A stretch of DNA of 64,000 nucleotides, from NCBI RefSeq assembly GCF_004010195.1, contig NC_057751.1:7840137-7904136 (forward strand). Direction: 5' to 3'. The notes under the pieces are model-generated. The model saw nothing but the letters and a program-made list of their open reading frames with translations, ran no database searches and was not told the DNA's origin. How positions within the stretch are numbered: the stretch's first letter is position 1; each line of letters starts with the position of its first letter. Source of the stretch: Chiloscyllium plagiosum (lineage: Eukaryota). The position numbers and the translations under genes were made by a program. Positions 6,364-61,219 of this stretch are shown here, one piece after another.

Positions 6364-6399
6364 AATCCTGACGAAGGGTTCCAGCCCGAAACGTCGACT
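6364..6399 (+). ncRNA. Minimal type I hammerhead ribozyme motif
   Basis: aauc CUGACGA a gggu-ucca-gccc GAAAC GUC gacu: intact core, 4-bp helix II, palindromic ACGU helix III, short helix I. Confidence 0.7.
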
Positions 6400-6495
6400 T
6401 TCCTGCTCCTAGGATGCTGCCTGACCTGCTGTGCTTTTCCAGCACCGCCCTGATCTTGGCTCTGACTTCCAGCATCTGCAATCCTCACTTTCGCC
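6365..6495 (+). mobile_element. Penelope-derived terminal element, family A, single arm plus tail
   Basis: Family A arm plus tail ctctgacttccagcatctgcaatcctcactttcgcc; flanked by ccatctcca at 6356-6364 and 6494-6502. Confidence 0.8.
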
Positions 6496-6907
6496 ATCTC
6501 CATGTCAACCTGATCCAGCCACCCTCTATTATCTTTCACCACAGCAGCATGTACAGTGCAGATGCGAGCTCTCCTAAGTGGAAAAAAAAAGTCAGTGATG
6601 AGGCCCTTCTACGGTCAGGTACCTGCGTTGTGAGCATCCTTTAGCTTCGACTCCAAATTGGCAATCTCAGGTGAAACTGAGATCCAACATTCAGACAACT
6701 TATCGAACAGCCAGCCCTATTGGCAAACAGCTCTTAAGTTTCCTTTCAGCTCAGGAACTTCATAATGAAGCATCATTAATTTTCACTGGGACACTGGCAA
6801 GGAAATGACATTCACCCAAAATGAAGAAGAGCAGAAGGGTGTCAGTTCGAGGGGGCATTATTTGGGGGGGCCAGGCATCACCAAGCAGATGAGATCACAC
6901 TAACATG

Positions 6908-7071
6908 TACAGAGGAACCTCGATTACCCAAGAGGACATGGGCAGGGAGTATTGCGTTAGGTGAATTGCATTCCGGATAATTGAATGCTGGATAACATAG
7001 TTTAGCCGAGCATCAGGATCTTGCGATCTTGTCGGATAATCTGATATTCGGATAATCAAGGTTGCTCTGTA
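6908..7071. mobile_element. TcMar/Tigger-like MITE
   Basis: TIRs cagaggaacctcgatta / taatcaaggttgctctg, with TA on both sides (6908-6909, 7070-7071); about 160 bp. Confidence 0.75.
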
Positions 7072-7849
7072 TTTGTCAAATTCCTCCTGGGTTAAAAAAG
7101 CCATTTAATGAACTCCATTTGCATTAAACTTAATGATTCTGATAATATTAAGCAACGTGCATGAAGCAGCGAGTATGTTATAATAAATTTAGATATCCAC
7201 TAGTTATTTAGGATCATCGATATTTAAAAAAAGGGTTTGAGAGTTACTCCTGTCCAAAAGGCACCTCAACTGAGATAAAATATTTTTGCATATTTGATGC
7301 ATTTTGGAGATTAAGTGGATGCCAGGTACTCAAAGGGGCAATATCATCCAATCATTTCTTTCTCACCAGGGACACACAGCTGTTACTTTCTCACTGAATT
7401 CTTTTGCTTGACATCCAGGAGCCTTCCTTTAGCCTAACTCCCGCAATTCTTTTTATTCACTCACAGGATGAAGGTATCACTGGATAGGCCAGTATTTTTT
7501 TGCCCATCCTTAAATGCCCAGTCGTTGCAGTGAGTTTGGCATGAAATATGAGCCGGCCCAGGTTCGGACAACAGTTTCCATCTTGAAAGGATATCAGCAA
7601 CTGAGAGGGGTTTTCCTGACAACTGGTAATGGTTTTGTGGTCACTGCTCGACTCTTAATTCTAGATTCTACTTTTACGAAGTTCAAATTCCATCATCTGT
7701 CATGGTGGGATTTGAACCCAGGTCCCCAGAATGTCACCTGGGTCTCTGGATCAATAGTCGAGTGATAATTCCATTTGGCCATTCCCGACCCTCTGTAAAT
7801 CATGTCGAGCTGGGAAAAAACAGCCTTCCCCCTGAAGCAGGTCAACTTT

Positions 7850-8170
7850 GGGGGAGACAATGGCTAAATGGCATTAGTTTAGACTTCTAATGCAGAGACC
7901 CAGGTAATATCTGGTGGACCTGGTTCGAATCCTGCTACGGCAGATGGTGGGATTTGAACCAATTTCCAATTTTAAAGAAAATCTGGAAATGAAGAGTCTA
8001 ATGATGACCATGAATCCATTGTCAATTGTTAGAAAAACTCATCTGTTTCACTTTGGGGAAGGAAACTGCCATCCTGATCTGGACTGGCCTCCGCGTTACC
8101 CCAGATGCACAGCAATGTGGTTGACACTTTGCTGCCTTCTGGCCAATTGGAGATGGGCAATAAGTTGGTT
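7850..8170 (+). mobile_element. tRNA-derived SINE (second family), adjacent to an opposite-strand relative at ~7450-7790
   Basis: B-box-like ggttcgaatcc at ~7922; similar copies at ~26490-26860 and ~35590-35990. Confidence 0.55.
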
Positions 8171-8540
8171 GGTCCCGTTTGTCCACAGCAAGAGAATGAT
8201 CTGAGAGAATGACAGAGAAGAAAGGTGGGTCATGACGGTTCGTGCTCGGGACCACGGGTAGTGTTGCCATGCCTCAAATTGAAAATGGAAGTTGCGTTTG
8301 GGGTCTGGGCACAGGTCCCAACTGTGCCATGGCTGTGTCGGAACATCCCCGAACATGTCACTTGGAAAGCAGCTGGGAAATCACAGGAATTCGCCTGGTA
8401 TTCAGCACCCAGCTGAACATTGGGGACTGTGTTTCTCTGAGGTGTTTCGTTGTTGATGCCTCACCTTGTCCTGTTATCAGCTGTTGCACATTAAGAGAAT
8501 AGAAACAAAGTTATAAGTATGTCCTGTCAGTGAACCGATA

Positions 8541-8788
8541 AGATTAGATTCTCTACAGTGTGGAAACAGGCCCTTCAGCCCAACACGCCCACACTGACCC
8601 TCTGAAGAGTAACCCACCCAGACTCACTTCCCTCTGACCAATGAACCTAACACGACGGGCAATTTAGCACGGCCAATTCACCTAACCTGCATATCTTTTG
8701 GAATATGGGAAGAAACCGGAGCACCCGGAGGAAACCCATGCAGACACGGAGAGAATGTGCAAACTCCACACAGAGAGTCGCCCGAGGC
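8541..8788 (-). mobile_element. HE1/V-SINE-type SINE, 5'-truncated
   Basis: V-domain (gtggagtttgcacattctc...gggtttcctccgggtgctccggtttc) on the minus strand and a CR1-like 3' tail. Confidence 0.85.
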
Positions 8789-10459
8789 ACTGATCCACAT
8801 CTTCAGAAAAACAACCAAGAAACAAACATTTATGCCTATGGAACAAAATTTTGTGAAAACCACTGAATTAACCAGGCCAGTTTTATTAAATTTCTTGATT
8901 TCTTGGTGAACTGCACTTGTCTGTCATTTGTGTGAATGGGGCTGAAAACAAAGGCTATAGGGTTTTAATATAGACATTCACTGAGATGACTTTGCTGTTT
9001 AATTTTGGTCTACTAAGGTTTCTGAGTTGTTAATAGATTGCTAAGTCTTTTGCTGAAGACACAAATTGGTGTTGACAACTGATTATTCATAGGGTCTGGA
9101 ATTGGTTATTTAAAACTCTGGTTATGAAAGTGCAGTGTCAATTTTGAGCGTCTTTGAAAATTTTAATTTTACGGTGCTTCAAATGGACATGTACAATGGC
9201 TGATCTGGTTCAGCCGTCTGTCTTAGTGTCCTAACAATTATCGGGTCGCTTGTCTGCACTACCTGGCCCAGTAATGCCAATGCCTGAATGATGGATGGTA
9301 ATGTCAGGGAGATGCCAAGAAAATATCACAACTGAGTCCACAGATGTACCTGTCCACTTCATTATTCATTACAGGACAGTGACCAGGGGCTGTACATGAT
9401 CCACAGTCTGCTCTGGTCATTCACTCTGACACACCCATTCTCTTCTCAATGATTCACAAAGGCCTGCGCCTCTCCTCATTCTTCTATTCACCCTTCAAGA
9501 GTTTTTTTTTCCCCTCAGGTGCTTATCTCTATTCCTCTGAACCACACCAATGCCATTCCCCATACCAATTCCCCATTGACGCTGCCACACGCTCGCCACT
9601 CTCTGCGTGATGGGGTTTCTCCTGGATTCTCGACTGGGACGCATCCGCGGTGACCTGACCTGCACTGCCCCGTTTTCACGACTCCTCAGTTCTGACATAT
9701 ATCTCACAAACCTCTCCTGCGCCTTCGGAGGTGCGTCTCAGACGAAGAGAAGCCCCTGGATTTCCCCTTCCCTCACCACACTCATGGTGGCAACTGCAGA
9801 CTAGACTAAGGTGACAGTCCAGGTGGAGGCTGGAATGGGAGATCTGCCGTGGCCTCCCACCATGCCATCTGACAGCTGATTCCAACGATGCACTCCTACA
9901 AATCCAGTAATCTCACTTTGATCATTTCTGTGCAGTAAAGCTGCTTTGAGAAGGATGGATGAAAACGGTCCCAAACGTTATCCCAGACTTCATTAGAGTG
10001 GTGTTAAACACTCCTTCGTGGCATACAATCCAGTTCATAAAGCTTTTAATAAAACGCTATTAATTGCTAAATTATGTGTAAGGGGATATTTTGGCATTAC
10101 AGTGTAATCAGCTAAACTCTGAGCAGAGGTCTTTCAAATGAATCACAATTTTGTTGTCCCTAATTGACTTCAATCAGTGCCCATTATGAGCCAAACATTG
10201 CCACATTAAGCAGACAATGGGCAATCCTTTTCTATTTCGACATTGTAGCAGTGCTTCTCTTTCATGTGTAAGACAGAGAACAGCTTGCCTTTATGGTTTG
10301 TATACTGTGCCAGCAGGTTGTGACTCCCTGTGGCAGTGCAGAATAAGGTAGTTGGAAAGCTGAGGTATATCACTCCTCAATGTTACTCTCCTCCAGTGCA
10401 ACGGGAAAAGGAGGATCCAGATCCCACTTCTGCACCATCCATGACATCATCCAATCATG

Positions 10460-11452
10460 GAATCATAGAATCCCTGCAGTGTGGAGGTAGGCCATTTGGC
10501 CCATCGAGTCCACACCGACTCTCTGAAGAGTGTCCCACCCTCCCAGCCTATCCCTGTAACCCTGCATTCCCCATGGCTAACCACCTAGCCTGCATATCTC
10601 TGGATACAATGGGAAATTTGGCACGGTCAGTCCACCTAACCTGCACATAGAGTCATGGAGTCATAGAGATGTACAGCATGGAAACAGACCCTTCGGACCA
10701 ACCCGCCCATGCCGACCAGATATCCCAACCCAATCTAGTCCCAGCTACCAGCACCCGGCCCATATCCCTCCAAACCCTTCCTATTCATATACTCATCCAA
10801 ATGCCTCTTAAATGTTGCAATTGTACCAGCCTCCACCATTTCCTCTGGCAGCTCATTCCATACCCGTACCACCCTCTGAGTGAAAAAGTTGCCCCTTAGG
10901 TCTCTTTTATATCTTTCCCCTCTCACCCTAAACCTATGCCCTCTAGTTCTGGACTCCCCCACCCCAGGGAAAAGATTTTGTCTATTTTTCCTATCCATGC
11001 CCCTCATAATTTTGTAAACCTCTATGAGGTCACCCCTCAGCCTCGGGCAGTCCAGGAAAAACAACTCCAGCCTGTTCAGCCTCTCCCTGTAGTTCAGATC
11101 CTCCAACCCTGGCAACATCCTTGTAAATCTTTTCTGAACCCTTTCAAGTTTCATAACATCTTTCTGATAGGAAGGCAGTGGCCTAACCAATGTCCTGTAC
11201 AGCCGCAACATGACCTCCCAACTCCTGTACTCAATACTCTGACCAATAAAGGAAAGCATACCAAACGCCTTCTTCACTATCCTATCTACCTGCAACTCCA
11301 CTTTCAATCTTTGGACTGTGGGAGGAAACCGCAGAGGAAACTCACACAGACACTGGCAGCAAGTGCAAACAGAGAGTCACTGACAGGCAGACTCAAGCCT
11401 GGTCCCTGGCGCTGTGAGGCAGCAGATCTAACCACTGAGCTACCGTGCCACC
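10460..11452 (-). mobile_element. HE1/V-SINE split in two by a CR1 insertion
   Basis: SINE 3' half at ~10460-10648 ends ...ctaacctgcacat; SINE 5' half resumes atctttggactgtgggaggaaacc at ~11307-11452. Confidence 0.8.
10648..11305 (-). mobile_element. CR1 (HER1-like) LINE 3' end, relatively young
   Basis: 190-aa ORF 10735-11307 (KKAFGMLSFIGQSIEYRSWEVMLRLYRTLVRP...RLRGDLIEVYKIMRGMD...TQRVVRVWNELPEE) plus 3' UTR and (gactctat) tail. Confidence 0.92.
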
Positions 11453-12369
11453 CCAATCTCCCTGTGCTTTTGACCCAGTGGATTTCTTGACATTATATGA
11501 TAGACATGCTGATTCTCCAGATACTCCGGGACTGTGTATAAGCCACAATTTATCAGTGGATTGGTAAACTGCTTCTCAGCTGAATAATACCTTCCTCTGC
11601 TTGAACAGTTGCCATCTTACTATCTTACCACTGCCACACTGAACTGCCGATTGTGCCGTCCTCCACATTCCTTCCTTCCATCTTTCCAGTGCCTTCCTGC
11701 TCTCTCCCGAGTGAACTAAGAGTCTTGTATTCTGTAACCCCTCCTCTATTTGGTGTGCAGGGCGGATGGAACCTTCGGAACTAGTTGAGCTCCTGAGACC
11801 CCTCACAGCTCCCGCATTCTCAATTCTGCAGGGTTTGAGAGCCAAGTGGAGGCTTGAGTTTGTCATGTTCCACAAGCTGAACTGCACAGGAGAAAAACTG
11901 CAGTGCTGGGGAGCTGGCTATGCCCAAATTGGCTGTGATGTTTCCTTGCTGACAGCGCGGCCCAAATTTCAAATGTGGCTCACTGGCTGCAAGCTGATTC
12001 AGAATATCCTGAGATCACGATAGGCACTGCACAAATGCACATCTTAGAAGGACAGGGAAGGAATGCATTCATTTTATATGACAGAGCCAATACTTTGGCT
12101 CCATAAACAGGGCGACTGGTTCTGACATCAATTCGGGGACATTTTCCTTTCTGGATTTTGTATTTCGCCTGGTATGAAATAAAGAACAGGACTGGTCTCA
12201 CTTTTGTCCATCAAGCAACGGGAACAGGAAAAAGTCACAACGCAATCCCAAATTGCTCCAAGCTTCTTTCCCAGTTTTCCTTCAGACAAATGAAAAAAAA
12301 AAGTGCGTTTCTCAGAACAAAATCATTGTAATTTGTCCAACAGAGTGACAGCAAAGTTCACAAACTGTG

Positions 12370-12580
12370 AAACAAGACGAAGAACTGTGGGTGCTGGAAA
12401 TCTAAAAGTAAAACAAACTGCTGGAGGAACTCAGCAGCATGTATGGAGAGAAAGCAGTGTTGAAGTTGCAGGTCCAGTGAGGAGGGGTCACTGGACTTGA
12501 AACGTTGACCTTGCCTTCTCTACTAAAGATGCTACCAGACATGCTGAGTTTCCCCAGAAACTTCTGGGTTTTTTTTTGCC
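12370..12580. mobile_element. Penelope-derived fold-back element, family E
   Basis: Inverted arms (ctggaggaactcagc.../...gctgagtttccccag); near-intact core tgaggaggggtcactggacttgaaacgttgac at ~12478-12509. Confidence 0.6.
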
Positions 12581-15360: not shown

Positions 15361-15574
15361 GATCATACCATACAAAGGTCACAGGGTGATTAAACAGTGT
15401 GAGGAACTCAAAGTTACAGGTGCAATGAAGGTGCATAAAAAGCAAGATCAACATTAAAGTTGAAGTTTGAGAATCCTAATAACAGCGGGGAAGAAGCTGT
15501 TCTTGAACCTGCTGGTATGTGTGTTGAAGCTTTTCAACCTTCTGCCTGACGGAAAAGGTTGAAAATACCCAGTT

Positions 15575-15798
15575 TCGAAAAGGCGTGGAGCTGGAAAAAG
15601 CACAGCGGGTCAAGCAGCATCAGAGGAGCAGGAGAGTTGACCTTTCAGGTTGGGACCCACCATGAGGACTCGGGTCCAAATGAAGGGTCCCGAACTTTAA
15701 ATGTTGACTCTCATGACGTGGCTCAACCTGCTGTATTTTCTCTAGCCTCCACACTTGATCGACTCTGACTTGCCAGTATCCGCAGTCTCACTATCTCC
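15575..15798. mobile_element. Penelope-derived fold-back element, family A, decayed
   Basis: ctggaaaaagcacagc...gaggagcaggagag arm, inverted partner and tail gactctgacttgccagtatccgcagtctcactatctcc. Confidence 0.6.
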
Positions 15799-16014
15799 AT
15801 TTGGTACACAGGCGCTCACATCTTATGACGAGGTGAGGACAATGCTCTTACCGTCACAGTTTTACACAGAGGAGAGACAAAAACTGGCAAAAACATACTA
15901 AACAAAGCTAGATGTCGTGTTAGGTTTTTGTTTTGGGCTTCTGGACTCAGTGTGGTGGTGATAAAACAGGAAGATCTCTGACTCCTTAAGTGATGTTGAT
16001 AAGAATGAACCGAA

Positions 16015-16224
16015 CTGAAAATGTGTTGATGGAAAAGCGCAGCAGGTCAGGCAGCATCCAATGAGCAGGAGAATCGACGTTTCGGGCATGAGCCCTTCTT
16101 CAGGAATGGGCTTATGGCCGAAACGTCGATTCTCCTGATCCTTGGATGCTGCCTGACCTGCTGCGCTTTTCCAGCAACACATTTTCAGCTCTGATCTCCA
16201 GCATCTGCAGACCTCACTTTCTCC
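16015..16224. mobile_element. Penelope-derived fold-back element, family A, with 14-bp TSD
   Basis: Inverted arms about 75 bp; tail ctctgatctccagcatctgcagacctcactttctcc; perfect TSD aagaatgaaccgaa at 16001-16014 and 16225-16238. Confidence 0.88.
16071..16108 (-). ncRNA. Minimal type I hammerhead ribozyme motif
   Basis: Minus strand cauuc CUGAAGA a gggc-ucau-gccc GAAAC GUC gauuc; identical to 58122-58159. Confidence 0.75.
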
Positions 16225-16704
16225 AAGAATGAACCGAAGACAACCTGGTGAAGTGTGATTTGCGGGAGGCAAAGGAGATTTCCAGATAACAGTGAGAGGA
16301 ACACAAGAGTTCAACAGAGAAATCTGGATGTGCAGCTGGAACCCGTGGTGGCATTGGCAAAAATAGTAATATGGGAAAGACATTGAAGGTTCCTTGAAAT
16401 GCTAAGTTATCCACGGATTATTTATTCCCCAAATAAATTCTGTATAAAAAATATCCGGCACTTGTGACAGAGTGATACTGTCCGGACCTCTAAACTACAA
16501 GGCCATAACATCTCTAAACCGGTTGACTGAAAACATCTGAGAATGCTCAGGAATCGGGGAGGAAGAAAGGACAAGATAAGAAATTCCCTTTTTGATATGT
16601 CTCAACAATGTTCCATCAATTCTTCAAGTGCTGATCCATCGCTGTTCCCTCCAGAGAGGCAACAAATTGTCTCTCAGATCCCGATACTGATCTTACTTCA
16701 AAGG

Positions 16705-16928
16705 TTTGGAGATGCCGGTGTTGGACTGGGATGTACAAAGTTAAAAATCACACAACACCAGGTTATAGTCCAGCAGGTTTAATTGGAAGCACACTAGCTT
16801 TCGGAGCGACGCTCCTACATCAGGTGATTGTTCACTTGACACTTGAACAATCACCTGAGGAGCGTCGCTCCGAAAGCTAGTGTGCTTCCAATTAAACCTG
16901 TTGGACTATAACCTGGTGTTGTGTGATC
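16705..16928. mobile_element. Penelope-type fold-back element, family B, with 13-bp TSD
   Basis: Near-perfect hairpin of about 90-bp arms (16747-16927), about 42-nt tail on the left; TSD cttacttcaaagg at 16692-16704 and 16929-16941; damaged hammerhead cores (ggagcgtcgctccgaaagcta) on both strands. Confidence 0.85.
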
Positions 16929-21636: not shown

Positions 21637-21904
21637 CACGTAGAGATTTGAAGAGGAGGATGGATCAGAGAGTCACAGAATGATGCCACTTGGCCTGCCA
21701 TTGCCATGCTAACCCTCTGCAAGAGCAACACAGTTGGTCCAACCTCCCCCATCATCATCCTGCAACCCTGCACGTAGAGATTTGAAGAGGAGGATCGATC
21801 AGAGAGTCACAGAATGATGCCACTTGGCCTGCCATTGCCATGCTAACCCTCCGCAAGAGCAACACAGTTGGTCCAACCTCCCCCATCATCATCCTGCAAC
21901 CCTG
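21637..21904. repeat. Tandem duplication, 2 x 134 bp
   Basis: Units 21637-21770 and 21771-21904 differ at only two positions (tggatc/tcgatc, ctctgc/ctccgc). Confidence 0.95.
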
Positions 21905-22531
21905 CCAATCTGTCCTCTCGAGAATACAGTCCTTTCAAAAGCTGTGTCTTAATCTACCTCCACCAAACTTCCGTGTAAGGCAACTTTGAAAGCAAAATGC
22001 ATCCTGGCTGGGAGCAGTCTAGGTCAGCGATGACAGAGATGTTAATTTTGTAGTCAAGTGTCAGAAATGACTGCATGAAATGCATCTGCTTCTTCTCCCA
22101 AGTGTCATTACAAAAACACAGATAGTTTTCATAAATCAGTGACTAATACTTGGCATGAGAGGACTTAGTTTGTTGGCAGCGTATGTGTTTTTTTTCTCTC
22201 TCCTCTCCTCTTCCTTTGGCCCCAGTCCAGGAGTAAGGTTGGATATCAGCTCTGTTGTGTCGGGTAAAATACCGTAATGCTCCATTTGTGGAACACAGCT
22301 GGGCTAGCCAGTGCTTCCCAGTACCTTTCCATCCTCTCCTGGTTTCCCCTTTGGAGGGTCGGTGCAGATTCAATGGGTCGGATGGCCTCATTCTGCACAG
22401 TCAGGATGCTATGATTCTATACAGATGCTGTTGACTGGAACAGCATTTATTGTCTGCCCTTAAGTGCCCGGACTGAGGGAATGAACACTGGGGAGAGGGA
22501 GGCCATTCAGACAGACATGTAGAAAATCAGA

Positions 22532-22773
22532 GTCAAGGTGAGAGTGGTGCTGGAAAAGCACAGCAGGTCAGGCAGCATCTGAGGAGCAGGAAAATCAATG
22601 TTTTGAGCAGGAGCCCTTCATCAGGAATGACGGTCTCATTCCTGATGAAGGGGCCCAATTCAAAACATTGATTTTCCTGCTCCTCAGATGCTGCATGACC
22701 TGATGTGCTTTTCCAGATCCACTCTAACCTTGACTCTGATCTCCAGCCTCTGCAGTGCTCACGTTCGCCACGC
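22532..22773. mobile_element. Penelope-derived fold-back element, family A, with TSD
   Basis: Two back-to-back cctgatgaaggg cores (GAAA side decayed); tail on the right; TSD agaaaatcaga at 22521-22531 and 22774-22784. Confidence 0.85.
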
Positions 22774-23718: not shown

Positions 23719-24039
23719 TTTTTTTTTAGATTACTTACAGTGTGGAAACAGGCCCTTCGGCCCAACAAGTCCACACCGACCCGCCGAAGCGTATACCACC
23801 CAGACCCGTACTCCTACACTTACCGCTTCACTTAACACTACGGGCAATTTAGCATGTTCAATTCACCTAACCTGCACATTTTTGGATTGTGGGAGGAAAC
23901 CGGAGCACCCGGAGGAAACCCACGCAGACACGGGGAGAATGTGCAAACTCCACACAGAGAGTCGCCTGAGGCAGGAATTGAACCCGGGTCTCTGGCGCTG
24001 TGAGGCAGCAGTGCTAACCACTGTGCCACCGTGCCGCCC
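23719..24039 (-). mobile_element. Full-length young HE1/V-SINE
   Basis: tRNA head ggcggcacggtggcacagtggttagc (A box), ggttcaattcc (B box), V-domain, CR1-derived tail and an A-rich end. Confidence 0.92.
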
Positions 24040-24310
24040 ACAAGGTGTTTGCACATTTTCCCTGTGTCTGCATGTGCTTCCTCCAGGTGCTCTAGTTACC
24101 TCCCACAGTCCAAAGATGTGCAGGTTAAATGAAGCGGTCATGCTAAATTGCCCAGTGGCCAGGGATGTACAGACGAGGTGGATTAGCCACAATAAATGCA
24201 GAGTTACAGGGATAAGGTCAGCGGTCGGTCTGATTGGGATGCTCTTTAGAGGGTCGGCATGGACTCGATGGGCCGAATAGCCTGCTTCCACACTGTAGGG
24301 ATTCTATGAT
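24040..24310 (+). mobile_element. Older HE1/V-SINE, interrupted by the young copy
   Basis: Continues from cgactgtctgtgag at ~23704 into gtttgcacattttccctgtgtctgc. Confidence 0.75.
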
Positions 24311-24734: not shown

Positions 24735-24925
24735 AAAACGGCAGATGCTGGAATCCAAGGCTGACAGGCAAGAGACCGGAAAACCATAGCAAGCCAGAAA
24801 GCATCAGGAGGTGGAGAAGTCAACACTTTGTGTGTCCTGAAGAAGAGTTATACCCAAAATGCTGACCTCTCCACCTCCTGATGCTGCCTGGCTTGCTGTG
24901 TTCTTCTAGCCTCCTGCTTATCTAA
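24735..24925. mobile_element. Penelope-derived fold-back element, family C
   Basis: Inverted arms agcaagccagaaagcatcaggaggtggaga / tctccacctcctgatgctgcctggcttgct; decayed core cctgaagaagagttatacccaaaatgctga; same terminus as 61220-61510. Confidence 0.65.
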
Positions 24926-32052: not shown

Positions 32053-32430
32053 AAGATAGAGGAGCAGATAGAGGCCAGTCAGCCCATCCAGGCTGCTCCA
32101 CCATTCAATCATATCTGATAGGTTTTTCAATTCCATTCTTCTGCCCGCTCCCATAACCTTTGATTGCCCCGGAACTGATCAACTATCACTCTCTTCAAGA
32201 CCATCAAAGACATGTTCACAGAGTCACCACCCTCTGGCTGAAGAGATTCCTCCTCAGCTCAGTTCTAAAGGGTCTTCCCTTCACTCTGAGACTACACCCT
32301 CGGGTCCTCTTTTCACTCCTGAGTGGAAACATCATCTCCACGTCCACACTATCCAGTCCTCTCAGTATTTCGTAAGCTTCAATGAAATACCTCTCCCTCT
32401 TCTAAACTCCAGTGAGTGCAGACCCAGCGT
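32053..32430 (-). mobile_element. CR1 LINE 3' fragment
   Basis: cataagataggagcaga tail and caccctctggctgaagagattcctcctc segment, cf. 58500-58950. Confidence 0.7.
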
Positions 32431-32638
32431 CCTCAAGAGCACACCACAGACTTTAATAGTGCACACCACAGACTAAATGCCAGAGGAAACACCACAGAAG
32501 TGCTTCACAGGAGGCTCCCTCTTCTAAACTCCAGTGAGTGCAGACCCAGCGTCCTCAAGAGCACACCACAGACTTTAATAGTGCACACCACAGACTAAAT
32601 GCCGGAGGAAACACCACAGAAGCGCTTCACAGGAGGCT
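32393..32638. repeat. Tandem duplication, 2 x 122 bp
   Basis: Units start at 32393 and 32515 (ctccctcttctaaactccagtgagtgcagacc...). Confidence 0.92.
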
Positions 32639-32718
32639 TCCAAGCACTGAGGATGTCACCTAGACAGGGGACGAAACGTTTGCAACAAAAACTTCCAGCT
32701 CGGCGAACAGAACCACAG
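32585..32718 (+). mobile_element. Short hammerhead-bearing element, family D, probably Penelope-derived
   Basis: Flanked by cagactttaa(t/c)agtgc at 32569-32584 and 32719-32734; contains a hammerhead core. Confidence 0.7.
32644..32683 (+). ncRNA. Minimal type I hammerhead ribozyme motif
   Basis: gca CUGAGGA u guc-a-ccu-agac-agg-g-gac GAAAC GUU ugc: helix I gca/ugc, 6-bp helix II with one mismatch, ACGU helix III. Confidence 0.78.
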
Positions 32719-33114
32719 CAGACTTTAACAGTGCCTCTGCAGCAATACGTGCACACTGATTTTAATTATTCCACAATTTCTGCATGAGAATTGTACATTT
32801 TGTTAACTGTAAAGGAACTGAAAGAAATGGAGCTTCTCTTGCATTTCTGTATGACCTCAAAACTGCACCACAGCCAAAGAATTGTGCAATCCTGAACAGT
32901 AATCTCTACTGCATTATGAAATGCTGCAGTCAAATGGAGCTTAACATGATTGCACAGACACACCTGGGATACTAACCCACTTTGGTGATCAATTCTGCAA
33001 TAATTATTAACCCAATAACAGCGGCAACTCCTCCACTTTTCTTCCCAAACATCTACCAATAACTGGCTCACTCTTATTTGTCACCAGTTGGAAATTAAGT
33101 TGTTTTCTGAGTGA

Positions 33115-34974: not shown

Positions 34975-35180
34975 TGTGGAGCTGCCTGTGTTGGACTGGG
35001 GTGGACAACGTTAAAAATCTCACAACTCCAAGTTATAGTGCAACAGGTTTATTTGCCTGTCCTAGCTTTCAGAGCGCTGCTCCTTCATCAGGCAACAAGT
35101 TACCTGATGAAGGAGCAGCGCTCTGAAAGCAAGTACTTTCAAATAAACCTATTGGAGTATAACCTGGTGCTATGTGATTT
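34975..35180. mobile_element. Penelope-type fold-back element, family B, nested in the LINE 3' UTR
   Basis: Same family as 16705-16928; back-to-back hammerhead cores at 35062-35093 (-) and 35101-35135 (+). Confidence 0.82.
35062..35135. ncRNA. Divergent pair of minimal hammerhead motifs (AGCU helix III type)
   Basis: Minus: gc CUGAUGA a ggagc-agc-gcucu GAAAG CUA g (intact). Plus: uac CUGAUGA a ggagc-agc-gcucu GAAAG CAA gua (U16.1 mutated). Confidence 0.68.
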
Positions 35181-36477
35181 ATCACCCTATAATCTTTGCG
35201 TGGTATCTTTCTATGATCATGGTATGATTTGCCTAGACCGCACACAAGACAAAACTTTTCAGTGTACCTAGGCACATGCGACAATAATAAATCAAATCAA
35301 ATCATGGAGGCTAGGGGGATTGGCCATACTTTATTGCCAACAGTGTCCAGGGAAGTGCTGGTGAGGTGGATTAGACATTGAACATACAGGGTTACAGGGA
35401 GAGGGTAGGGGGTGAGTCAGGGGTGCTGCTTTTCAGAGGGTGGACCTGATGGGCTGAATGGCCTGCCTCCACAGTGTGGGGATTCCCTGATTCAATTTCC
35501 ATGCTCCTGACTTCAAATGATGCAACTCTGAACCATTAAAAATCGCATCAAAATTGTTCGCTGTTTTATGAGATGATTCATCGCCAACAATGGTGCCCTG
35601 GTGGCTGACTGGGCCATTTCAAGATTAAGGTCAGGGTCAACCATACTGCCTTGGAGTCACACTTCAGGTCAGACCAGGAAAGACTGGAATGGCCGGTGTC
35701 CTGCCTGGACAGACGTCAGGGAAACCGGTTGGATTTTTACAACAATCAACCATGGTCACCAGGATTACTATTAGTGATGAAATACCAAGAGAACTGTGGT
35801 CGTGGGGATGCGGTAAATCAGAAACTTCTCTGCAAATGCTACCATTACTGCTGAGCTTTTTCCAGCAGTTTCTATTTTTGTTCCCAAGACTGAGACTGGT
35901 TTTCAATCCCAGATTTGCTCACTGACTTCCAAGTACACCAGCTGGTGTGCTAACATTTGAACCCATGTCCTAGCCCACAGCCTCAAGCGAGCCAATGACA
36001 CATCACAACCAGATCCAGCACAAGATCCAGCTCTTCCTGAGAAGGATGGAAGTAATCCTTCAGATAAGCAGGTAAAAGAAGATCAGACAAGCTCAGGAAG
36101 GTGAGAGGTTGAAGTCTGCATGAAGTAACAGGCCCGTTCTAAGGTACAAGGGGGTACCCTCTGCAATCGATGCTTCAGCAACTCGACAACGATTAAGTCT
36201 GTTCTCACAACATAAACTGTTAGCACGGTAAACGTAGAGGGTTGGCTTGCTGGAGACTGGACTTTATTTGTGTGTGCTCAAGCCAACACAGTAACTTGAG
36301 GGCAGTGGGGGAAAACTCATAACCAACGCGACAAAATGCTTTTCATCAGCAATCATTCAACAGGTGATGGGTAAGGACAGACCATGGTGCAGGAAGTTAT
36401 GTGCCTGATTCAAAGTTTTTAAACTGGAAGGATTCAGGCAAATATTTGCAAGCTAACATTTAAAAGAGACTTGCAGA

Positions 36478-40536: not shown

Positions 40537-40659
40537 CTCAGCGTTGTTAAGTTTTGGCAAGAATGGTACAGAGTCCCAGTGAGAAGTCTCACTGTGATGA
40601 TTGATGAGTCATGAATAGCCTCACCTCTCAGGCATTAAGATTAAGATCCTGTAAAAATA

Positions 40660-41232
40660 CTATCACCTCAACCTGCGATGATGAGGGCTTCCAAGCCCTC
40701 TGTTTCTTCCTCTCCCGGCATCCCCAGCAGTACCCGTGCACTGAAACTGTCATTCATTTGGCCAAACTGTTCCTCACCCTCAGTAATTTCTCCTGAGAAT
40801 CCTCCCACTTCCGCCAGACAAAACGGGTAGCCACGGGCACCCAATGGACCCCAGCTTTGCCTGTCTCTTTGTCAGTTACGTGGAACATTCCACCTTCCGC
40901 AGTTACATCGGCACCATTCCCCACCTTTTCCTCCACCACATCCATGCCTGTATAGGCTCCGAAGAGGAGGTTGAACATTTCATCAACTTCACTAACACAT
41001 TCCACCCCAACCCTAAATTCACCTGGACCATCTCAGACACCCCCCTCCCCTTCCCCGACCTCCCCATCTCCATCAACGGTGACTGACTCAACACAGACAA
41101 CTACAAATCCATTGACTCCCACAGCTACCTGGACTACACCTCCTCCCACCCTGCCTCCTGTAAAAACGCTATCCTTCCAGAACCCCACTCTCGACACTGA
41201 TCTCCAGCATCTGCAGTCCTCACTTTTTCCTA
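40660..41232 (+). mobile_element. Penelope-like element RT fragment fused to the family A terminus
   Basis: PSFACLFVSYVEHSTFRSYIGTIPHLFLHHIHACIG...FINFTNTFHPNPKFTWTISDTPLPFPDL, then YKSIDSHSYLDYTSSHPASCKNAI (PLE RT/thumb); joined directly to ccactctcgacactgatctccagcatctgcagtcctcactttttcc. Confidence 0.88.
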
Positions 41233-45169: not shown

Positions 45170-45625
45170 AAACAAAGAACACCTAAAGTGCAGAAGCAGG
45201 CCATTCGGCCCATCAAGTCTACACCAACCGTCCGAAGGGAATCTCACCCAGACACAACCCCCTCTTCTATCCCTGTAACCCTGCATTTTCTATGACTAAT
45301 CTGCTGATCCTTGAACACTATGGGTAATTTAGCATGGTCTAGATTAGAGTGGTGCTGGAAAAGCACAACAGTTCAGGCAGCATCCGAGGAGCAGTAAAAT
45401 TGACTTTTCGGGCAAAAGCCCTTCATCAGGAATAATTTAGCATGGCCAACCCATCCTAACCTCCACAACTCTGGACTGTGGGAGGAAACCGGAGCACCCG
45501 GATGAAACCCACGCAGACATGAGGAGAATGTGCAAACTCCTCACAGTTGCTCAAGGCTGGAGTGGAACGCAGGTCCCTGCCACTGTGAGGCAGCGGTGCT
45601 AACCACTAAGCCACTGCGACACCCA
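45170..45625 (-). mobile_element. HE1/V-SINE interrupted by a hammerhead element
   Basis: SINE sequence is continuous once 45338-45445 is removed. Confidence 0.82.
45338..45432 (-). mobile_element. Family A single-arm element with 13-bp TSD and hammerhead motif
   Basis: TSD taatttagcatgg at 45325-45337 and 45433-45445; minus-strand uuc CUGAUGA a gggc-uuuu-gccc GAAAA GUC at ~45399-45432. Confidence 0.85.
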
Positions 45626-47645: not shown

Positions 47646-47649
47646 AATC

Positions 47650-48028
47650 CCCTCCCCCAACCTTATCAATGTGGATTTCACCAGTTTCCTCATTTCCCCT
47701 CTCCCCCCACCTTATCCCAGTCCCAAGCCTCTAACTTGGCACTGTCCTCTTGACCTGACCATCACCTTTCCCATCTATCCAATCCGCCCTCCTCTCTGAC
47801 CTGTAACTTTCTCCTCCCACCTTCATCTACTTGTTGCATTTCCAGCTACCCTCCCCCTCCCATTTGTCTCTCAGCACCCCCAGCCAACAAGCCTCATTCC
47901 TGATGAAGGCCTTATGCCCGAAACGTCGATTGTCCTGCTCCTCGGATGCTGCGTGACCTGCTGTGCTTTTCTAGCACCACATTCTCCACTGTGATCTCCA
48001 GACAGCATCTGCAGTCCTCACTTTCTCC
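47650..48028 (+). mobile_element. Penelope-like element 3' end (ORF C-terminus, pyrimidine-rich UTR, family A terminus)
   Basis: PNLINVDFTSFLIS resembles PLE ORF ends; C/T-rich tract; then cauuc CUGAUGA aggccuuaugccc GAAAC GUC gauug at ~47895-47932 and the family A tail. Confidence 0.78.
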
Positions 48029-49434: not shown

Positions 49435-50165
49435 GGATAAGAAACAAAGAAAATCAGAATAGATAGAGGTCCTTTTTGGTTATTCCGCCATTCCATATGA
49501 TCTTGGCTGATCATCCAACTCCATATCCTAGTCACACTTTGCCTCCATAAGCTCTAAGAGGAACTCCAAACCCCTTTTTGAAAACAGTCAATGTTTCAGT
49601 CTCAAATGCTTTCTCAGGCAGAAGATTCCACAGCTCACCATTGTGAAGAAGTTGCTCATTGTTAGTCCTAAGTGGTTTTTCATGTATCTTTGGACTGTGA
49701 CAAAAACAAGTAATAGCTGGCAAAACTCAGCAGGTCTGGCCGAATCTGTGGGGAGAAAGCAGAGTTTACATTTTGAATCCGGTGACTCTTCATCAGAACA
49801 CGAAGTCATCGGACTCAAAATATTAACTCCGCTCTCTCACCACAGATGCTGCCAGACCTGCTGAGTTTTGCCAGCTCTACCTTGTTTTTGTTTCAGATCC
49901 CCAGTGTCCACAGTTCTTTGTTTTACCTGAGACTCTGACCCCTGGTCCTAGACTTCCCGTCATCAGGAACATCCTTCCTGCATTTACCCAGTGTAGTCCT
50001 GTTAGAATTTTATAGGTTTCTATGAGATCTCCCCTCATTCTTACAAGCTCCAGGGAATGCAGTCCTAGCCAATCCAGGCTGCCTTTGTATATCAGTCCTG
50101 CCATCCCAGGAACCCGCCTAATAAACCTCTGTTGCACTTCCCCCACAGCCAGGAAGTCCTTCCTT
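49435..50165 (-). mobile_element. CR1 LINE 3' end, interrupted at ~49700-49924
   Basis: ORF VQQRFIRRVPGMAGL...RMRGDLIETYKILTGL; sequence resumes on the other side of the insertion. Confidence 0.82.
49700..49924. mobile_element. Penelope-derived fold-back element, family E
   Basis: Inverted arms agctggcaaaactcagcaggtctggc / gccagacctgctgagttttgccagct; minus-strand guu CUGAUGA a gaguc-accg-gauuc aaaaugua aac (decayed core); tail on the right. Confidence 0.72.
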
Positions 50166-55849: not shown

Positions 55850-56270
55850 GACTTGATGGGCTGAGAGGCCTCTTCTGTACTGTGTGATTCTATGATTCCA
55901 GTCTTTACTGTCCCCCCAGGCACTGCATTCCAGATTCTCACCACCTCTGGGTGAAAACAAGTTTGCTCAAATCCCCTTCCCTTCACCTTAAGATTATGCC
56001 ACTTTGGCACTGACCCTTCAACAAAAGGGGAACAGCTGTGTCCCACCCACCCAGTCCATGCCCGCCATAGCCTTAGACACCTCCAACAGTTTCCACACCT
56101 CAGCTCTCACCACTCTGAAGAAAGCGGCCTGAGCCCGTCCAGCCTCTCTTCATCGTGAGAATGCTCCAGCTCAGGAAGTATCCTGCTCAGCCTCCTCCGC
56201 ACCCCCTCCAGTGCAATCACAGCCTTCCTCGAATGTGGTGACCAGAACTGCACACAGCACTCTAGCTGAA
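55850..56270 (-). mobile_element. CR1 LINE 3' fragment
   Basis: QLECCVQFWSPHSRKAVIALEGVRRRLSRILPELE; VVRIWNAVPG. Confidence 0.8.
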
Positions 56271-56612
56271 AGGGATGCAAAATTTTCCTCAGCTCCGACA
56301 TAACCTCTCTGACCTCTCCGTCGCAGGGGATAGAGGGAAATGCTGCCTCAGTGATGTCATTGACCTGTCAAAGGACCTCAAAGGACCTTTGGACAAGCAC
56401 CCAAGATCCCGCTGCTCCACTGAGCTTCCTAGTCTTGTTCCCGAGAAGGCAGGGACTGCAGGACCCCCGAGGGTGAGCCTAGGTTCCTGGAGGGGAGTTT
56501 CAAGCCACGCTTTCTGACTGGGCTGGAATCAGTGCCGAGTGGGATGGCTTCTGTTGTGCCAACGCTCCGTTGGGGATCAGATCATCTCAGACTTGACCCC
56601 AACAAAACAGAG

Positions 56613-56803
56613 AGAAGGTGAGCCCTGCAGATGCTGGAGATCAGGGTCGAAGAGTGTGGTGCTGGAACAGCACAGCCTGTCAGGCAGCATTCGAGGAGCA
56701 GGAGAATCAACGTTTCCTGAAAAGCTTATGCTCAAAACGTCGATTCTCTTGCTCCTCGGATACTGTCTGACTGGCTGTGCTTTTCCAGCACCACACTCTT
56801 CGA
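56613..56803. mobile_element. Penelope-derived fold-back element, family A
   Basis: Tail on the left, inverted arms, core partly deleted; flanking near-direct repeat gaccccaacaaaacagag / gaccccaccaaaacacag (56595-56612, 56802-56819). Confidence 0.8.
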
Positions 56804-57587
56804 CCCCACCAAAACACAGCTCAATGTCAATATTTTGCCAATGGTCTACCAGAATACAAACAAATTCACCATTACTGTTGCCACTTTTTGAATTTAGACA
56901 TGAAATATGAAACGTCAGAAAACTACATGTTCACACAAAAGACACATCTGTTCAAAAAAAACACCAAAAACAAACATTTTACCAAGTTCAAAATTTTCTG
57001 CACAGCACTTTTTTTTTTGGACTATTTTCTAATCTTTCAAAAGAGAGAGAGGGCAGGATTTTCTCAGTCATTAATATTTGATGCATCAGTATGTGGTTTT
57101 GACTCAGTGTTATGTGGATATGAAATGCCATTTATTCGTTTGAGGCATTCTTGGACAACTGCACTCGGGGGATCCCGATGGAGTGAGACTTCCATCGTTG
57201 TAAAACACAATGATTCAAGTCAAATGGAGACACAACATTAAGGACATAAACAACAATTTTAACCGAGTGAAAAGCAAGTTTTTAACCTATACTTATTTAT
57301 TGAAAGGGGAATAAAGAATTGGAACAACGAGACATTGAACCCGTTTGTGAGATCTCAAACTGGATTTACACATGGAGCTATGTGAGCTGAGATAACAATG
57401 GTTGGAACGTGCTTTTGTCTGTGTTCATGGCTCACCAGGCAATATTTTTGCATGTCAGTCCAAAAATTGTGACCTTATTTACCTTCCTATCCCCTTTCCT
57501 CTCCCTCCGGGTTTTCGGTACATAAAGTAGGGTGTCACTAAGATACAGGACCAATTCAATGCTGGCGTTATGATCCTTTCAGTTGCA

Positions 57588-58423
57588 TGTGAAACTGTGG
57601 TTAAGGTCAGTTGTTTCAGGTTGACAATGTGCTACACCAGTGCTGAAAGAAGTTATCAATTTCATTTATCATTTACCTCCTTGAGACATTGCAAATGAAA
57701 ACAATCTCACATCTGTTGGTGGGACCTTGCTGTGTGTGTCAGTGCAGTTCTGAGTGCTCAGTCTTTTATTTTGGTTCTTAGTTTCGCATTAGCTTTTTAC
57801 TTTGCACAGTCCTGCAGATGTTGTCTGAATCCAGTGGACAAACCCCAAGGCAGGAGTTGCCGGCAAGAATTGGTGGGAGACGGAACTTCGCAGTCTGAGC
57901 CACAGCAATCCAAGACGTGGCGACTGCAGTGTAGAGTCATACAGTACAGAAGCAGACTCGTCGGTCCAACCAGTCCACGCCTACCATAACCCCAAAGTCC
58001 CATCTTCCTGCACTTGGCCCTTGAATGCGAAATAGGAGCAAGATTGGACCACTCAGGCCTCATGTTGAAAAGTGTGGTGCTGGAAAAGCGCAGCAGGCCA
58101 GGCAGCATTCGAGGAGCAGGAGAATCGACGTTTCGGGCATGAGCCCTTCTTCAGGAATGACTTTAGACAATATTCGCAGGATTGTGCAAAGTAAAAAGCT
58201 AATGCAAAACTAAGAACCAAAACAAAAGACAGAGCACTTAGGGAACAGCACTGACACACACAGCAAGATCCCACCAACAGAGGTCAGTTGTTTTTTTTCA
58301 TTTGCAATGTGTCAAGGAACGTTGGTTGAGGAGGGTAAATGATAAATGAAATTGATAACTTCTTTCAGCACTGGTGTAGCACATTGTCAACCTGAAACAA
58401 CTGACCTTAACCACAGTTTCACA
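57588..58423. repeat. Long inverted duplication (arms 57588-57826 and 58165-58423)
   Basis: Arms are reverse complements; the outer 90 bp are identical and the inner part has substitutions and indels. Confidence 0.93.
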
Positions 58424-58463
58424 CTTTTCTTATCTCCAGCATCTGCAGTCCTCACTTTCTCCT
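58066..58463. mobile_element. Family A element containing an inverted copy of flanking DNA, 16-bp TSD
   Basis: TSD cactcaggcctcatgt at 58050-58065 and 58464-58479; arm 58066-58160 with an intact minus-strand hammerhead (58122-58159); tail ~58430-58462. Confidence 0.85.
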
Positions 58464-58499
58464 CACTCAGGCCTCATGTCTGCTCCACCATCCTACAAG

Positions 58500-58950
58500 A
58501 TCAGAAGGCCACAAGATCAAGGAACAGAATTAGGCCATTCAGCCCATCAGATCTGCTCCACTGTTGGATCACAGCTGATATGGTTCTCAACCCCATTCTC
58601 TTGCCTTCTCCCCATAACCTTTGATTCCCTTACCAATAGAGAACCTTACTATCACTGTCAAAAATACACTCCACGACTTGGCCTCCACTGCCCTCGATGG
58701 CAATGAGTTCCACGAATTCGCCACCCTCTGGATGAAGAAATTCTTCAAGTCACTTCTAAATGGTTGTCCCTTCACTCTGAGGCTCAGGTCCAAGACTCGC
58801 TGATGAGTGGAGACTTCTCCACGTCCACTCCATCCAGTCTCTCAGTATTCAGTTTCAGTCAGGTCCGCCCCTCGTTCCTCCGAACTCTGAGTACAGACTC
58901 AGAGTTCTCAACCATTCCTTCATCCCTGGAATCATTCTTGTTCTTCGGCC
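58500..58950 (-). mobile_element. CR1 LINE 3' end
   Basis: ORF SLRVKGQPFRSDLKNFFIQRVANSWNSLPSRAVEA. Confidence 0.85.
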
Positions 58951-59614
58951 CCCCTCCATTGTCAACACATCATTCTTTTAATCAGGGCTAACTTGATGAC
59001 TCTAGATGCCCATAAACCCTCAACAACTTCCAACATTTAAGTATCTAACAGGGAGTATCACGCAATATGTGACAGCATGATTGTCACTCAACTGTGAGAG
59101 CTTTGTTTATGTTACAATTCCCCGTAAGGAGCTATTAACACTGGCAGTACCCCACATTGTCTCCTTGAAGAATCATGTGGACTAACACGTAGGGACCAAC
59201 TCCGTTACAATGACATTAATAGCTGCATTAATACATTGTCCAAAGTATAAAATTCCGGCAAGCGTCCAACAAATCAACACCGGGAATTCACTGAAAAGTC
59301 TGAAGACTTTCTCCTCTATTCTTCTCTTTGGTGTGATGCTCGAGGTCTGATCGACAGGCTCCAGGTCTCAACTCTGATTGGCACAGAGGTGGTGTATTCT
59401 TAAAGCAGGCTTCTCAAATGCATCAGTATCCTAGCTGAGCATAATCCTTTTCCTCACCAAACATTGCCCTCGCAACTCTAGGAGTCCCGAGGTACTCCTT
59501 AAACGTAGCTGCTGAAAATTTCTGTCTTAAGAATCCAGCACCTAAACAATCTGCCTTAATCCTACCCAAGTCAATTGACAGCCTATCATGCTTCCAGGCT
59601 ATCAGTGCAAAGCT

Positions 59615-59805
59615 GTGTAGGTTAGGTGGTTTGGCCATGCTAAATTGTCCATCGTGTCCAGGCATGTGCAGGCAGTGTGGATCAGCCACGGGAAATGCAG
59701 GGTTACAGGATTAGGGTAGAGTAGGTAGGTCTGAGTGGGATGCTGTTTGGAGGGCCAGTGTGGGCTCAATGGGCTAAATGGCCTGCTTCCACACTGCTGT
59801 GATTC
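59615..59805 (+). mobile_element. HE1/V-SINE 3' half
   Basis: ggttaggtggtttggccatgctaaattg...aatggcctgcttccacactg. Confidence 0.78.
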
Positions 59806-60109
59806 AATGCTTCTCCAACGGGCAACACAGCTTGAATCTCCAAGGAAACCCCCATCTGCAGTTCAGGAAATTCATGGCCAAATGATAAATGCAAGATGAA
59901 TTTCGAATCAGCCCTCACAGTCAAGGGAAATACAATAACCCATGTGACAAAAAAGTACACTAAAGAGGGATTTGTTCCATCCTCTTTCTTCTGAAGACAC
60001 AAGTTATAAATCTGGTGCCAAGGTGTCTGCAACACGGAAAGCAGAGTCCAAAGCTTTGAGGTTAATTTTAAACTTGACAAAAGAATCATGAGTGGGTGGA
60101 ATCAGGGTC

Positions 60110-60540
60110 TTACAGACTCAGGGTTTTAATTTTGTTTTCAGTTGTTGAATTTGGCGTTTTGGAGTTGAAGCTGCCTCCGCTTTTTCTTTCTCCTGAACTG
60201 GAGAAGATTGCAAGTGAGGGAAGTCTGTTTTGCTGTATTTGCCTTTGCCAAGGGTGTGTTTATGGGATGCTGCAACATTGGAACGGTTGGTGAATAGTGG
60301 TTAAATAATATGTTCGTTTGTTAAGTTTTGATAAAGTTGAAGTCACGCCAATTCTTTTTATCAGTTTGTGTTTCAACTGTAGTGTGAGAATAAAGTCCGT
60401 TCTCATTAAAGGTCAGTAGTTTGGTCAACTGAAATGCATCTGGAACGCAGCGCCTTACTCTTGCCTTTCGAAAACATAAAAGTCAGGGTCGAGGTTATCT
60501 CCTTGATACATTTTGATGGGGTTTGGTTTGGTCTCTAACA
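60110..60540 (+). mobile_element. Solo-LTR-like dispersed repeat
   Basis: Homologous to 38352-38872; has aataaa and ends ...ggtctctaaca. Confidence 0.5.
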
Positions 60541-60561
60541 CCAATAAGACACCACTATGGA

Positions 60562-60783
60562 AAGTGAGGATTGCAGATGCTGGAGAGTCTGAGTTGAAAA
60601 GGGTGGTGCTGGAAAAGCACAGTAGGTCAGGTAGCATCCGAGGAGCAGGAGAGTCAATGTTTCAGGCAGAAGGCCTACATCAGGAATGTGATGATAAAGG
60701 GCTTATGCCTGAATCGTCGACTCTCCTTCTCCTCAGATGCTGGCTGACCTGCTGTGCTTTTCCAGCGCCACCCTTTTCAACAC
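60562..60783. mobile_element. Penelope-derived fold-back element, family A
   Basis: Tail on the left, inverted arms, decayed cores; TSD caccac(t/a)atgga at 60550-60561 and 60784-60795. Confidence 0.83.
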
Positions 60784-61219
60784 CACCACAATGGATGTAG
60801 GTTTGCTCAATCTGAACCTCAACCTGAGCTACACATCTTCTCAAAACTCACTACCACCACTATCCAATGAACTCAACCCACAGTCACAACTCACAAACGT
60901 TACCTTATGCCATGTTTCACGGTTGCTGACATCCCACCATGAGCAAGCAGCTTCTGCACTCAGGACAAAACAGTTGCAAAGGACAAAGACAATGGAAATG
61001 GAAAAATTGATTTAATTCAACCAACCAGAGAGACCGCCCTCTGTCAAACCAATCACTCTGGTTTCAAAATCATTCTGCCAAACATCCCTCCAAAAACACC
61101 TGGAGCCATGCCAGATCTAGCCCACATGGGAAACCAGATCCACTGTCATGTGGTTGTTTCTTCAACTGCTGTTGACCCTTGAACTAACTCCATCAAATGA
61201 CTTGATGGGCAAAATGAAC

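Follow-up and report, generated by a model that had tools for sequence, protein, structure and literature searches.

The 64,000-nucleotide stretch of the Chiloscyllium plagiosum genome considered here (contig NC_057751.1, positions 7,840,137 to 7,904,136; the window) contains many short elements with a minimal hammerhead ribozyme motif. These are the 3'-terminal 90-130 bases of Neptune- and Poseidon-type Penelope-like retrotransposons (Penelope-like elements, PLEs), present singly or as head-to-head fold-backs. The ends fall at two fixed 3' places, one of each per inverted insertion, and occur together with variable centres, target duplications and matching arms. Judged from the DNA, the fold-backs were likely formed anew at each insertion, and each probably arose when both nicked target strands were primed on one RNA at two neighbouring start sites. 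A first-pass annotation of the window had left two options, retrozyme-like self-cleaving units or extreme 5'-truncated and inverted insertions. The second fits the inverted, truncated PLE ends with their variable junctions.

The annotation had counted at least 15 elements with a shared core, and all seven of its best-preserved cores were found again at their places and on their strands. A strict minimal-hammerhead pattern (both boxes, helix II paired over at least 3 bp, 15.2-16.2 paired, NUH) detected five cores, at 6368 (+), 16076 (-), 32647 (+), 35063 (-) and 58127 (-), whereas 100 shuffled versions of the window averaged 0.02 and never gave more than 1; the cores at 45399 and 47895 carry one decay change apiece. 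Profiles of three families, here called A, B and C, gave 26, 4 and 3 matches in the window, corresponding to about 23 separate insertions, among them ten head-to-head pairs (eight by profile, two older ones by eye). Thus the number of elements held, but a relaxed pattern read the core in only nine (15 ranges checked). The dense population is likewise real as to its elements, yet ordinary as to its density: 120 evenly placed 10-kb stretches elsewhere in the genome (1,170,998 bases) contained 77 strict cores, with 0-1 in five shuffles of this sample, so that the window is typical of its genome. The density of strict cores is about 66 per Mb, or roughly 2x10^5 if extrapolated. The search with hammerhead models which the annotation had proposed returned no hammerhead from Rfam in the window at E<=5, and each of the 12 matches obtained was below the gathering score; the ribozyme motif of these elements is missed by Rfam.

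The three families are 3' ends of PLEs, with A and B read from their sequences as Neptune-type and C as Poseidon-type. For family A, the reverse transcriptase (RT) fragment at 40620-41175 was used as query, 150 of 29,486 genome candidates were scored, and 20 larger loci were picked from the scored list because of their long open frames. In 17 of these 20 loci the family A end followed the PLE reverse transcriptase in the sense orientation, an association set beforehand as a test; the three misses include masked stretches. The family A open reading frame (ORF; P0001) has RT motifs and a CX4CxxC linker ahead of GIY-YIG, a feature of the Neptune clade, for which a CX2-5CxxC zinc-finger-like linker between RT and endonuclease is described (PMC8557442). 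Further features of PLE membership are present: a terminal repeat tied to one ORF with RT and C-terminal GIY-YIG (family A), 5' truncation, an inverted copy at the 5' end, and an optional tail of 30-40 bp. The ends of families B and C also follow GIY-YIG coding sequence, in agreement with the annotated PLE termini with minimal type I hammerheads. The GIY-YIG of family C lacks the linker, and this family is read as Poseidon-type. About 400-500 bases of common upstream sequence lead to a GIY-YIG-like end in two loci of family B, which is placed as Neptune-type by likeness of this endonuclease end only. The three families may already be named in Repbase or Dfam. Their suggested very high copy number was confirmed in 160 unselected 10-kb loci (1,550,958 bases), which contained 331 ends of family A (about 213 per Mb), 88 of family B (57 per Mb) and 34 of family C (22 per Mb); the total would be about 10^6 by rough extrapolation, if this large-contig sample is representative.

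Minimal hammerheads are known from the pseudo-long terminal repeats (pseudo-LTRs) of metazoan PLEs, including Neptune and Poseidon of fishes (Cervera and de la Pena 2014, PMC4209133). All ten subfamily consensuses obtained here keep the four marks given there for these ribozymes, i.e., the core boxes, the extra base after A9, G10.1-C11.1 and the palindromic 15.2-16.2 of helix III, and there is likewise no helix III loop. The elements here differ in a helix I of only 2-4 bp, and the species in the sections compared include no cartilaginous fish. The core formed part of our search pattern, the helix pairing did not. Helices I and II vary in pairs: across six families 28 of 30 pairs are Watson-Crick, as opposed to a mean of 11.7 for permuted partners (p=0.003). 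Since the helices change in compensatory pairs between families, the motif is, on this comparison, a real selected structure; it would have been inherited from the parent element and kept by selection there. Self-cleavage is another matter. For the published PLE hammerheads, the monomer did not cleave and dimers cleaved at a low level (PMC4209133), and a lizard PLE hammerhead cleaves only with protein present (PMC11167929). The RNA of the fold-back at 16016-16224 has a predicted fold of -150.7 kcal/mol (z -19.9) with the core paired. With cores on opposite strands and predicted to be buried in the hairpin, fold-backs cannot act as a tandem dimer, and for hairpin copies the prediction is that they lack ribozyme activity and are unlikely to self-cleave. 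The expected back-to-back cores in many inverted dimers were seen in part: ten pairs in the window are head to head, but of 48 sampled pairs made of one short and one tailed end only 9 retain an entire core on both arms. Neither genomic 5' ends nor read ends form a clear pile at the predicted cut site, both being weak tests. We infer that the RT template is mostly uncut RNA.

The census of unselected family A ends in the 160 loci revealed 57 head-to-head and no tail-to-tail pairs. The junction coordinates of these pairs were distinct in 56 cases, and duplications of 10-19 bp flanked 34 of the 57 compared with 1 of 57 controls. In the window, where direct repeats of 9-16 bp had been annotated, repeats of 11-16 bp were present at 8 of 17 insertions tested. 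The ends fall at two 3' places about 36 bases apart, termed short and long (tailed), and are overall nearly equal in number (156 short, 164 long, 11 unclassified). The pairs, however, are far from random: 48 consist of a short and a long end, 4 of a long and an unclassified, 3 of two long and 2 of two short ends, hence short plus long in 48 of 53 classifiable pairs versus 50% expected (p=3e-10). Family B agrees with 16 of 20 pairs, and family C contributed one pair only. Long inverted insertions bounded by a duplication follow the same rule (13 of 15 rows short plus long, two long plus unclassified, with one insertion counted twice), therefore the minis are the short end of a continuum with long insertions. 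Long inverted arms and flanking duplications are also features of miniature inverted-repeat transposable elements (MITEs), cut-and-paste DNA elements in which the hammerhead match would be incidental. A MITE has fixed symmetric ends, a fixed interior and a fixed short duplication, all contradicted by the pair census with its asymmetric ends, variable centres and duplications of variable length (10-19 bp); given in addition the continuity with RT-coding elements and the compensatory helix pairing across unrelated families, this explanation is extremely improbable.

The arms of a pair are related in a peculiar manner. Among the 48 pairs with a short and a long end, the short arm reached further 5' in 31, the long arm in 9, and both were equal in 8. 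In the 31 pairs the extra 5' part and the tail are thus on different arms, neither arm contains the other, and a pair does not as a rule consist of an arm and its copy. In the extreme, an arm consists of the tail alone, as in the insertion at 58063-58463 (tail from 58427) and at sampled locus L066. Still, both arms are from one source, as their sequences indicate: in ten young pairs all 15 diagnostic sites match between the arms (null 0.50, p=0.002), and the arm-to-arm distance averages 0.081 versus 0.138 to other arms (50/62 pairs with enough overlap).

We favour an explanation by two primers on one RNA, which accounts directly for the non-nested and the tail-only arms. Staggered nicks would provide two DNA primers at the target; one would start at the short site and the other at the tailed site, both sites being set by a predicted stem of 7-9 bp. 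Both complementary DNAs (cDNAs) would be extended toward the RNA 5' end, most of them stopping within or just before the hammerhead, probably at the transcript start, and their ends would be joined through a small number of common or filler bases, in some cases following a jump to another RNA or to nearby DNA. At sampled locus L113 (G000:C33, sense 7933-8138), the short arm of one A subfamily is joined head to tail with the tailed arm of another, the latter starting at helix II; this joint looks like a jump between two RNAs. The favoured reading fits the Poseidon element PAc of the lizard Anolis, the enzyme of which cuts and extends both strands in vitro and has two adjacent internal RT start sites, by which the tail is defined; it is predicted to be dimeric and uses an uncut RNA template (Frangieh et al. 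2024, PMC11167929). The two adjacent start sites of PAc resemble the short and tailed ends of the shark elements. PAc is a Poseidon and not a Neptune element, its hammerhead was shown to cleave with protein help while those described here are putative ribozymes, and in the sections of that study compared the two sites are not invoked to explain inverted insertions. In L1 twin priming, two primers on one RNA produce an inversion, and the second primer lands upstream on a non-overlapping part; in contrast, both arms of the shark fold-backs copy the same region.

Inverted ends of PLEs have been attributed to self-priming in rotifers (PMC3846280) and the tail to endonuclease resolution (PMC8557442). 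Antisense RNA or the first cDNA would give a palindromic intermediate, resolved at the short site on one side and at the tailed site on the other, so that insertions would still be made anew. Identical arms and palindromic junctions such as that at sampled locus L063 are accounted for in this way. But a copy made by simple folding back cannot extend beyond the arm that served as its template, whereas the extra 5' part and the tail are split in 31 of 48 pairs; tail-only arms have almost nothing in common with their partners, and an additional trimming step is required. The non-nested arms argue against simple self-priming as put forward in PMC3846280, and we regard this origin as rather unlikely in comparison with two primers on one RNA, though it is the strongest competitor.

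Several observations weigh against our interpretation and have to be set beside it. Every step of the mechanism is read from DNA. The one-tail rule is broken by 5 of the 53 pairs in family A and by 4 of the 20 in family B, the arm identity could also be obtained from two RNAs of one locus or by later conversion between arms, and many junctions contain, by alignment, filler of at least 10 bases. Only 18 of 120 solo minis have a duplication of at least 10 bp, so that many of them are not explained in detail. No full-length element with a tail running on into an ORF was present among 222 long ends. As to family identity, the Pfam matches of the family A ORF (GIY-YIG, E 2.7e-4; RVT_1, E 0.006) and of family C (GIY-YIG, E 0.021) are below the curated cut-offs, and the Pfam scan of the family B peptide, which has GIY-YIG-like motifs only, gave no match. 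Self-priming, as outlined above, adds to this side.

The minis might alternatively be a self-propagating non-autonomous family, resembling short interspersed nuclear elements (SINEs) or retrozymes, which is transcribed, perhaps self-cleaved and circularised, and remobilised by a PLE enzyme. Their very high number, the retention of the presumed start, the core and both start sites, and published non-autonomous PLE derivatives and PLE-derived retrozymes speak for such a family. Non-LTR retrozymes are non-coding, hammerhead-bearing, related to PLE pseudo-LTRs and very numerous, with up to 120,000 in axolotl (PMC7229834; bioRxiv 10.64898/2026.07.22.740005), and the shark elements share these features. 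However, those retrozymes are head-to-tail tandems able to release and circularise a monomer (PMC7229834), whereas the shark elements are solo or head to head with cores on opposite strands; same-strand neighbours were few (5 among 263 hits), the window contains no head-to-tail hammerhead array, and genomic 5' ends form no clear pile at the cut site. A fixed palindromic master family was suggested by 20 of the 30 best genome matches to 16007-16196, which have the same junction pattern, but this set was chosen by likeness to the query; the 56 distinct junctions among 57 unselected pairs led us to reject it, and another subfamily (sampled locus L045) shows this junction geometry too. The candidate for a mini-only subfamily, A3, was rejected as well, since it occurs on long copies too. 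The same holds for A1 and B, and indeed for all subfamilies checked, in the 1.55 Mb sample, which rarer mini-only lineages could escape. The annotated retrozyme-like units are therefore not supported, and self-propagation of the minis is improbable as a general explanation, although a minority of solo minis may act as sources.

In the following, the first C of CUGA is position +1, and cleavage is predicted after +28 in family A. From the 331 family A ends, 77 were dropped (low score or masked flank). The 5' ends of the 254 well-aligned copies are distributed unevenly: 48 extend beyond -37, none lies at -36 to -14, 8 at -13 to -7, 85 at -6 to +2, most often at -3 (27 ends), and the remaining 113 are inside these positions; about ten of the ends at this wall belong to long copies of subfamilies absent from the reference set. 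For family B (85 of 88 ends) the corresponding numbers are 25 long, none at -33 to -12, 39 at -11 to +5 and 21 inside. Family C lacks a wall, 24 of 32 ends extending past -21. The Neptune-type 5' ends thus cluster 3-11 bases ahead of the ribozyme core and not at its cut site. Ends made by cleavage were considered and rejected: 14 of 254 lie at +28 to +30, of which about 4-5 are alignments halting at decayed cores, and the rest are not clearly above the approximately 2 per base alongside. As copying halts at the 5' border of the structure, this may be where the RNA itself terminates, and the wall would then be a run-off at a transcript start just before the hammerhead. Position -4 is C or T in all 59 of the long A copies compared, whereas A ends at -3 with a preceding purine have G in 10 of 12 (p=0.004), a bias lacking in the inner ends; after removal of three ends of short inverted copies G remained in 7 of 9, two of the seven being arms of one insertion. 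An extra G is the expected product of copying a cap, and the family A -3 position lies in what we take to be an initiator-like context. A cap-derived G and a start at -3 in family A are suggestive only. Transcription starts of PLEs have been placed in the pseudo-LTR, and poly(A) single-cell reads (run X21) showed no pile of read starts or ends at the wall, while run X22 contributed no matching read. No empty allele of the window insertions was seen in these runs, whose reads do not extend over the unique flanks. A splice acceptor at the wall, as in Drosophila Penelope with its intron ending at helix I (PMC4209133), was rejected, there being no AG at the wall. Upstream of family A (e.g., loci L130 and L104), pyrimidine tracts that end in AG and resemble splice acceptors occur about 17-28 bases before the core. 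An endonuclease cut at ATT as cause of the wall matches family A but fails for B.

On the 3' side, a stem of 7-9 bp is predicted in 9 of 10 consensuses from the three unrelated families; it begins 16-19 bases past the cut site, pairs with the tail and encloses the short start site. Family C shows one compensatory change in the stem, and p values were 0.001-0.04 each, for windows chosen after viewing the folds, the first having been widened to include family C. Just after the hammerhead, 62 of 70 family B copies have a poly(A) signal (two canonical hexamers, 32 and 30), which is absent from most A subfamilies; the signal regions in the window are 16763-16783 (-) and 16891-16911 (+). In reads of a related or identical species (run X21), poly(A) begins 29-32 bases past the cut site and 12-15 past the signal (152, 181 and 142 reads), though these reads may derive from a few host transcripts. 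The poly(A) point is upstream of both RT start sites.

Together with the 5' wall, the poly(A) site of family B allows the reading that the pseudo-LTR of Neptune functions in the manner of a true LTR. A capped RNA would start 3-7 bases ahead of the hammerhead, that of family B would be polyadenylated about 30 bases past the cut site, and a strong-stop-like cDNA of 90-130 bases from the 5' copy would have to jump to the 3' copy via the shared hammerhead region. We offer this tentatively and consider it on the whole doubtful; the pattern in the DNA is also accounted for by read-through of tandem copies, which requires no jump. Retroviral strong-stop DNA is a short run-off cDNA from a start near the RNA 5' end, made on a tRNA primer and not on target DNA, as is proposed for the shark elements. 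If the LTR-like reading were true, the enzyme would be dimeric and primed on target DNA. Stubs and fold-backs, in their hundreds of thousands, would then represent jumps that failed, and the stem conserved around the short site would serve to position the template for an RT related to telomerase.

The insertions in the window illustrate these types. The family A fold-back at 16015-16224 has a short arm on the minus strand with a whole core (16076-16103) and a tailed plus-strand arm beginning at helix II, within a 14-bp target duplication (16001-16014 and 16225-16238). Further family A fold-backs are at 22532-22771 (both arms beginning near -3; 13-bp duplication with one mismatch), 56612-56801 (cores truncated or decayed; 15-bp duplication with one mismatch) and 60561-60783 (12-bp duplication with one mismatch), the last adjoined by a lone family C tail at 60810-60848. 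Family B fold-backs, with this second Neptune-type end, lie at 16705-16928 (tailed arm on the minus strand with core 16795-16823 and poly(A) signal 16783-16778, short arm on the plus strand; 13-bp duplication) and at 34975-35187 (cores 35063-35091, minus, and 35104-35132, plus). The composite insertion at 58063-58463 joins a short minus-strand arm (core 58127-58154), 262 bases of captured DNA and the lone plus-strand tail (58427-58461) within a duplication of 14-16 bp. The captured segment (58162-58423) is an inverted copy, 86% identical, of unique DNA at 57588-57829, about 230 bases away, and no further match to it was found in 1.6 Mb. Older fold-backs are family-A-related (24738-24922, decayed; 15569-15800, decayed, seen by eye) or belong to an older Neptune-type subfamily (49695-49927, with a decayed minus-strand core at 49767-49796; 12374-12570, decayed). 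Solo family A insertions are located at 6366-6496 (+; core 6368-6395, long tailed end, 11-bp direct repeat with one mismatch), at 45338-45432 (-; short end starting at -4, 13-bp duplication, inside another repeat) and at 1957-2042 (+; starting within the core, short end), and an older related one with a decayed core at 61229-61310 (-). At 47850-48028 (+) a family A end is preserved with its upstream untranslated region (core 47900-47927, long end), and at 40620-41231 (+) a Neptune-type RT fragment, broken by stops and frameshifts, is joined directly to a family A tail (41175-41230). The annotated core at 32644 is present but not part of a fold-back; it belongs to a 5'-truncated family C, Poseidon-type, end at 32393-32721 (+; core 32647-32680, short end) within a 122-bp two-copy tandem. 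Other repeats are also present in the window: two head-to-head copies of an abundant short repeat at 23727-24306, presumably akin to HE1/V-SINE and not a PLE end, explain the inverted repeats I2 and I10; at 7718-7923 is a weak inverted pair of a repeat unrelated to families A, B and C; and a 134-bp tandem at 21637-21905 has two copies, 98% identical, and no further copy in the window.

Parts of this picture are known already, namely minimal hammerheads in solo or opposed truncated PLE copies, inverted ends and one-sided tails. Mostly solo truncated copies, and some pairs 100-700 bp apart on opposite strands, are described in PMC4209133, in which another descriptor gave about 4,000 hammerheads in coelacanth and about 9,000 in Xenopus, unlike the 66 strict cores per Mb here. 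Insertions with an inverted 5'-truncated copy and a 30-40-bp tail at one end (Craig et al. 2021, PMC8557442; Arkhipova et al. 2013, PMC3846280) resemble ours in their head-to-head inverted ends, often one-sided tail, target duplications and captured host DNA; in the shark, however, both arms are trimmed to about 100 bases and the one-tail rule has been counted. Searches of the openly accessible literature, repeat databases aside, gave no account of such mini fold-backs in sharks nor counts of short and long pairing, and no proposal of twin priming or a strong-stop step for PLEs was found in it; the parts compared also include those of PMC2377424, PMC6155905 and PMC8969392.

PLEs are the retrotransposons closest to telomerase, and the origin of their inverted ends and one-sided tails and the role of the hammerhead are poorly understood. 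About a million ends in this genome, by rough extrapolation, record the copying reaction, and their sheer number makes the cycle testable. The counts yield predictions for an in vitro assay: paired use of two start sites, an uncut template, a site-setting stem and an RNA start just before the core. The stubs are better annotated as PLE ends than as MITEs, SINEs, microRNA hairpins or retrozymes.

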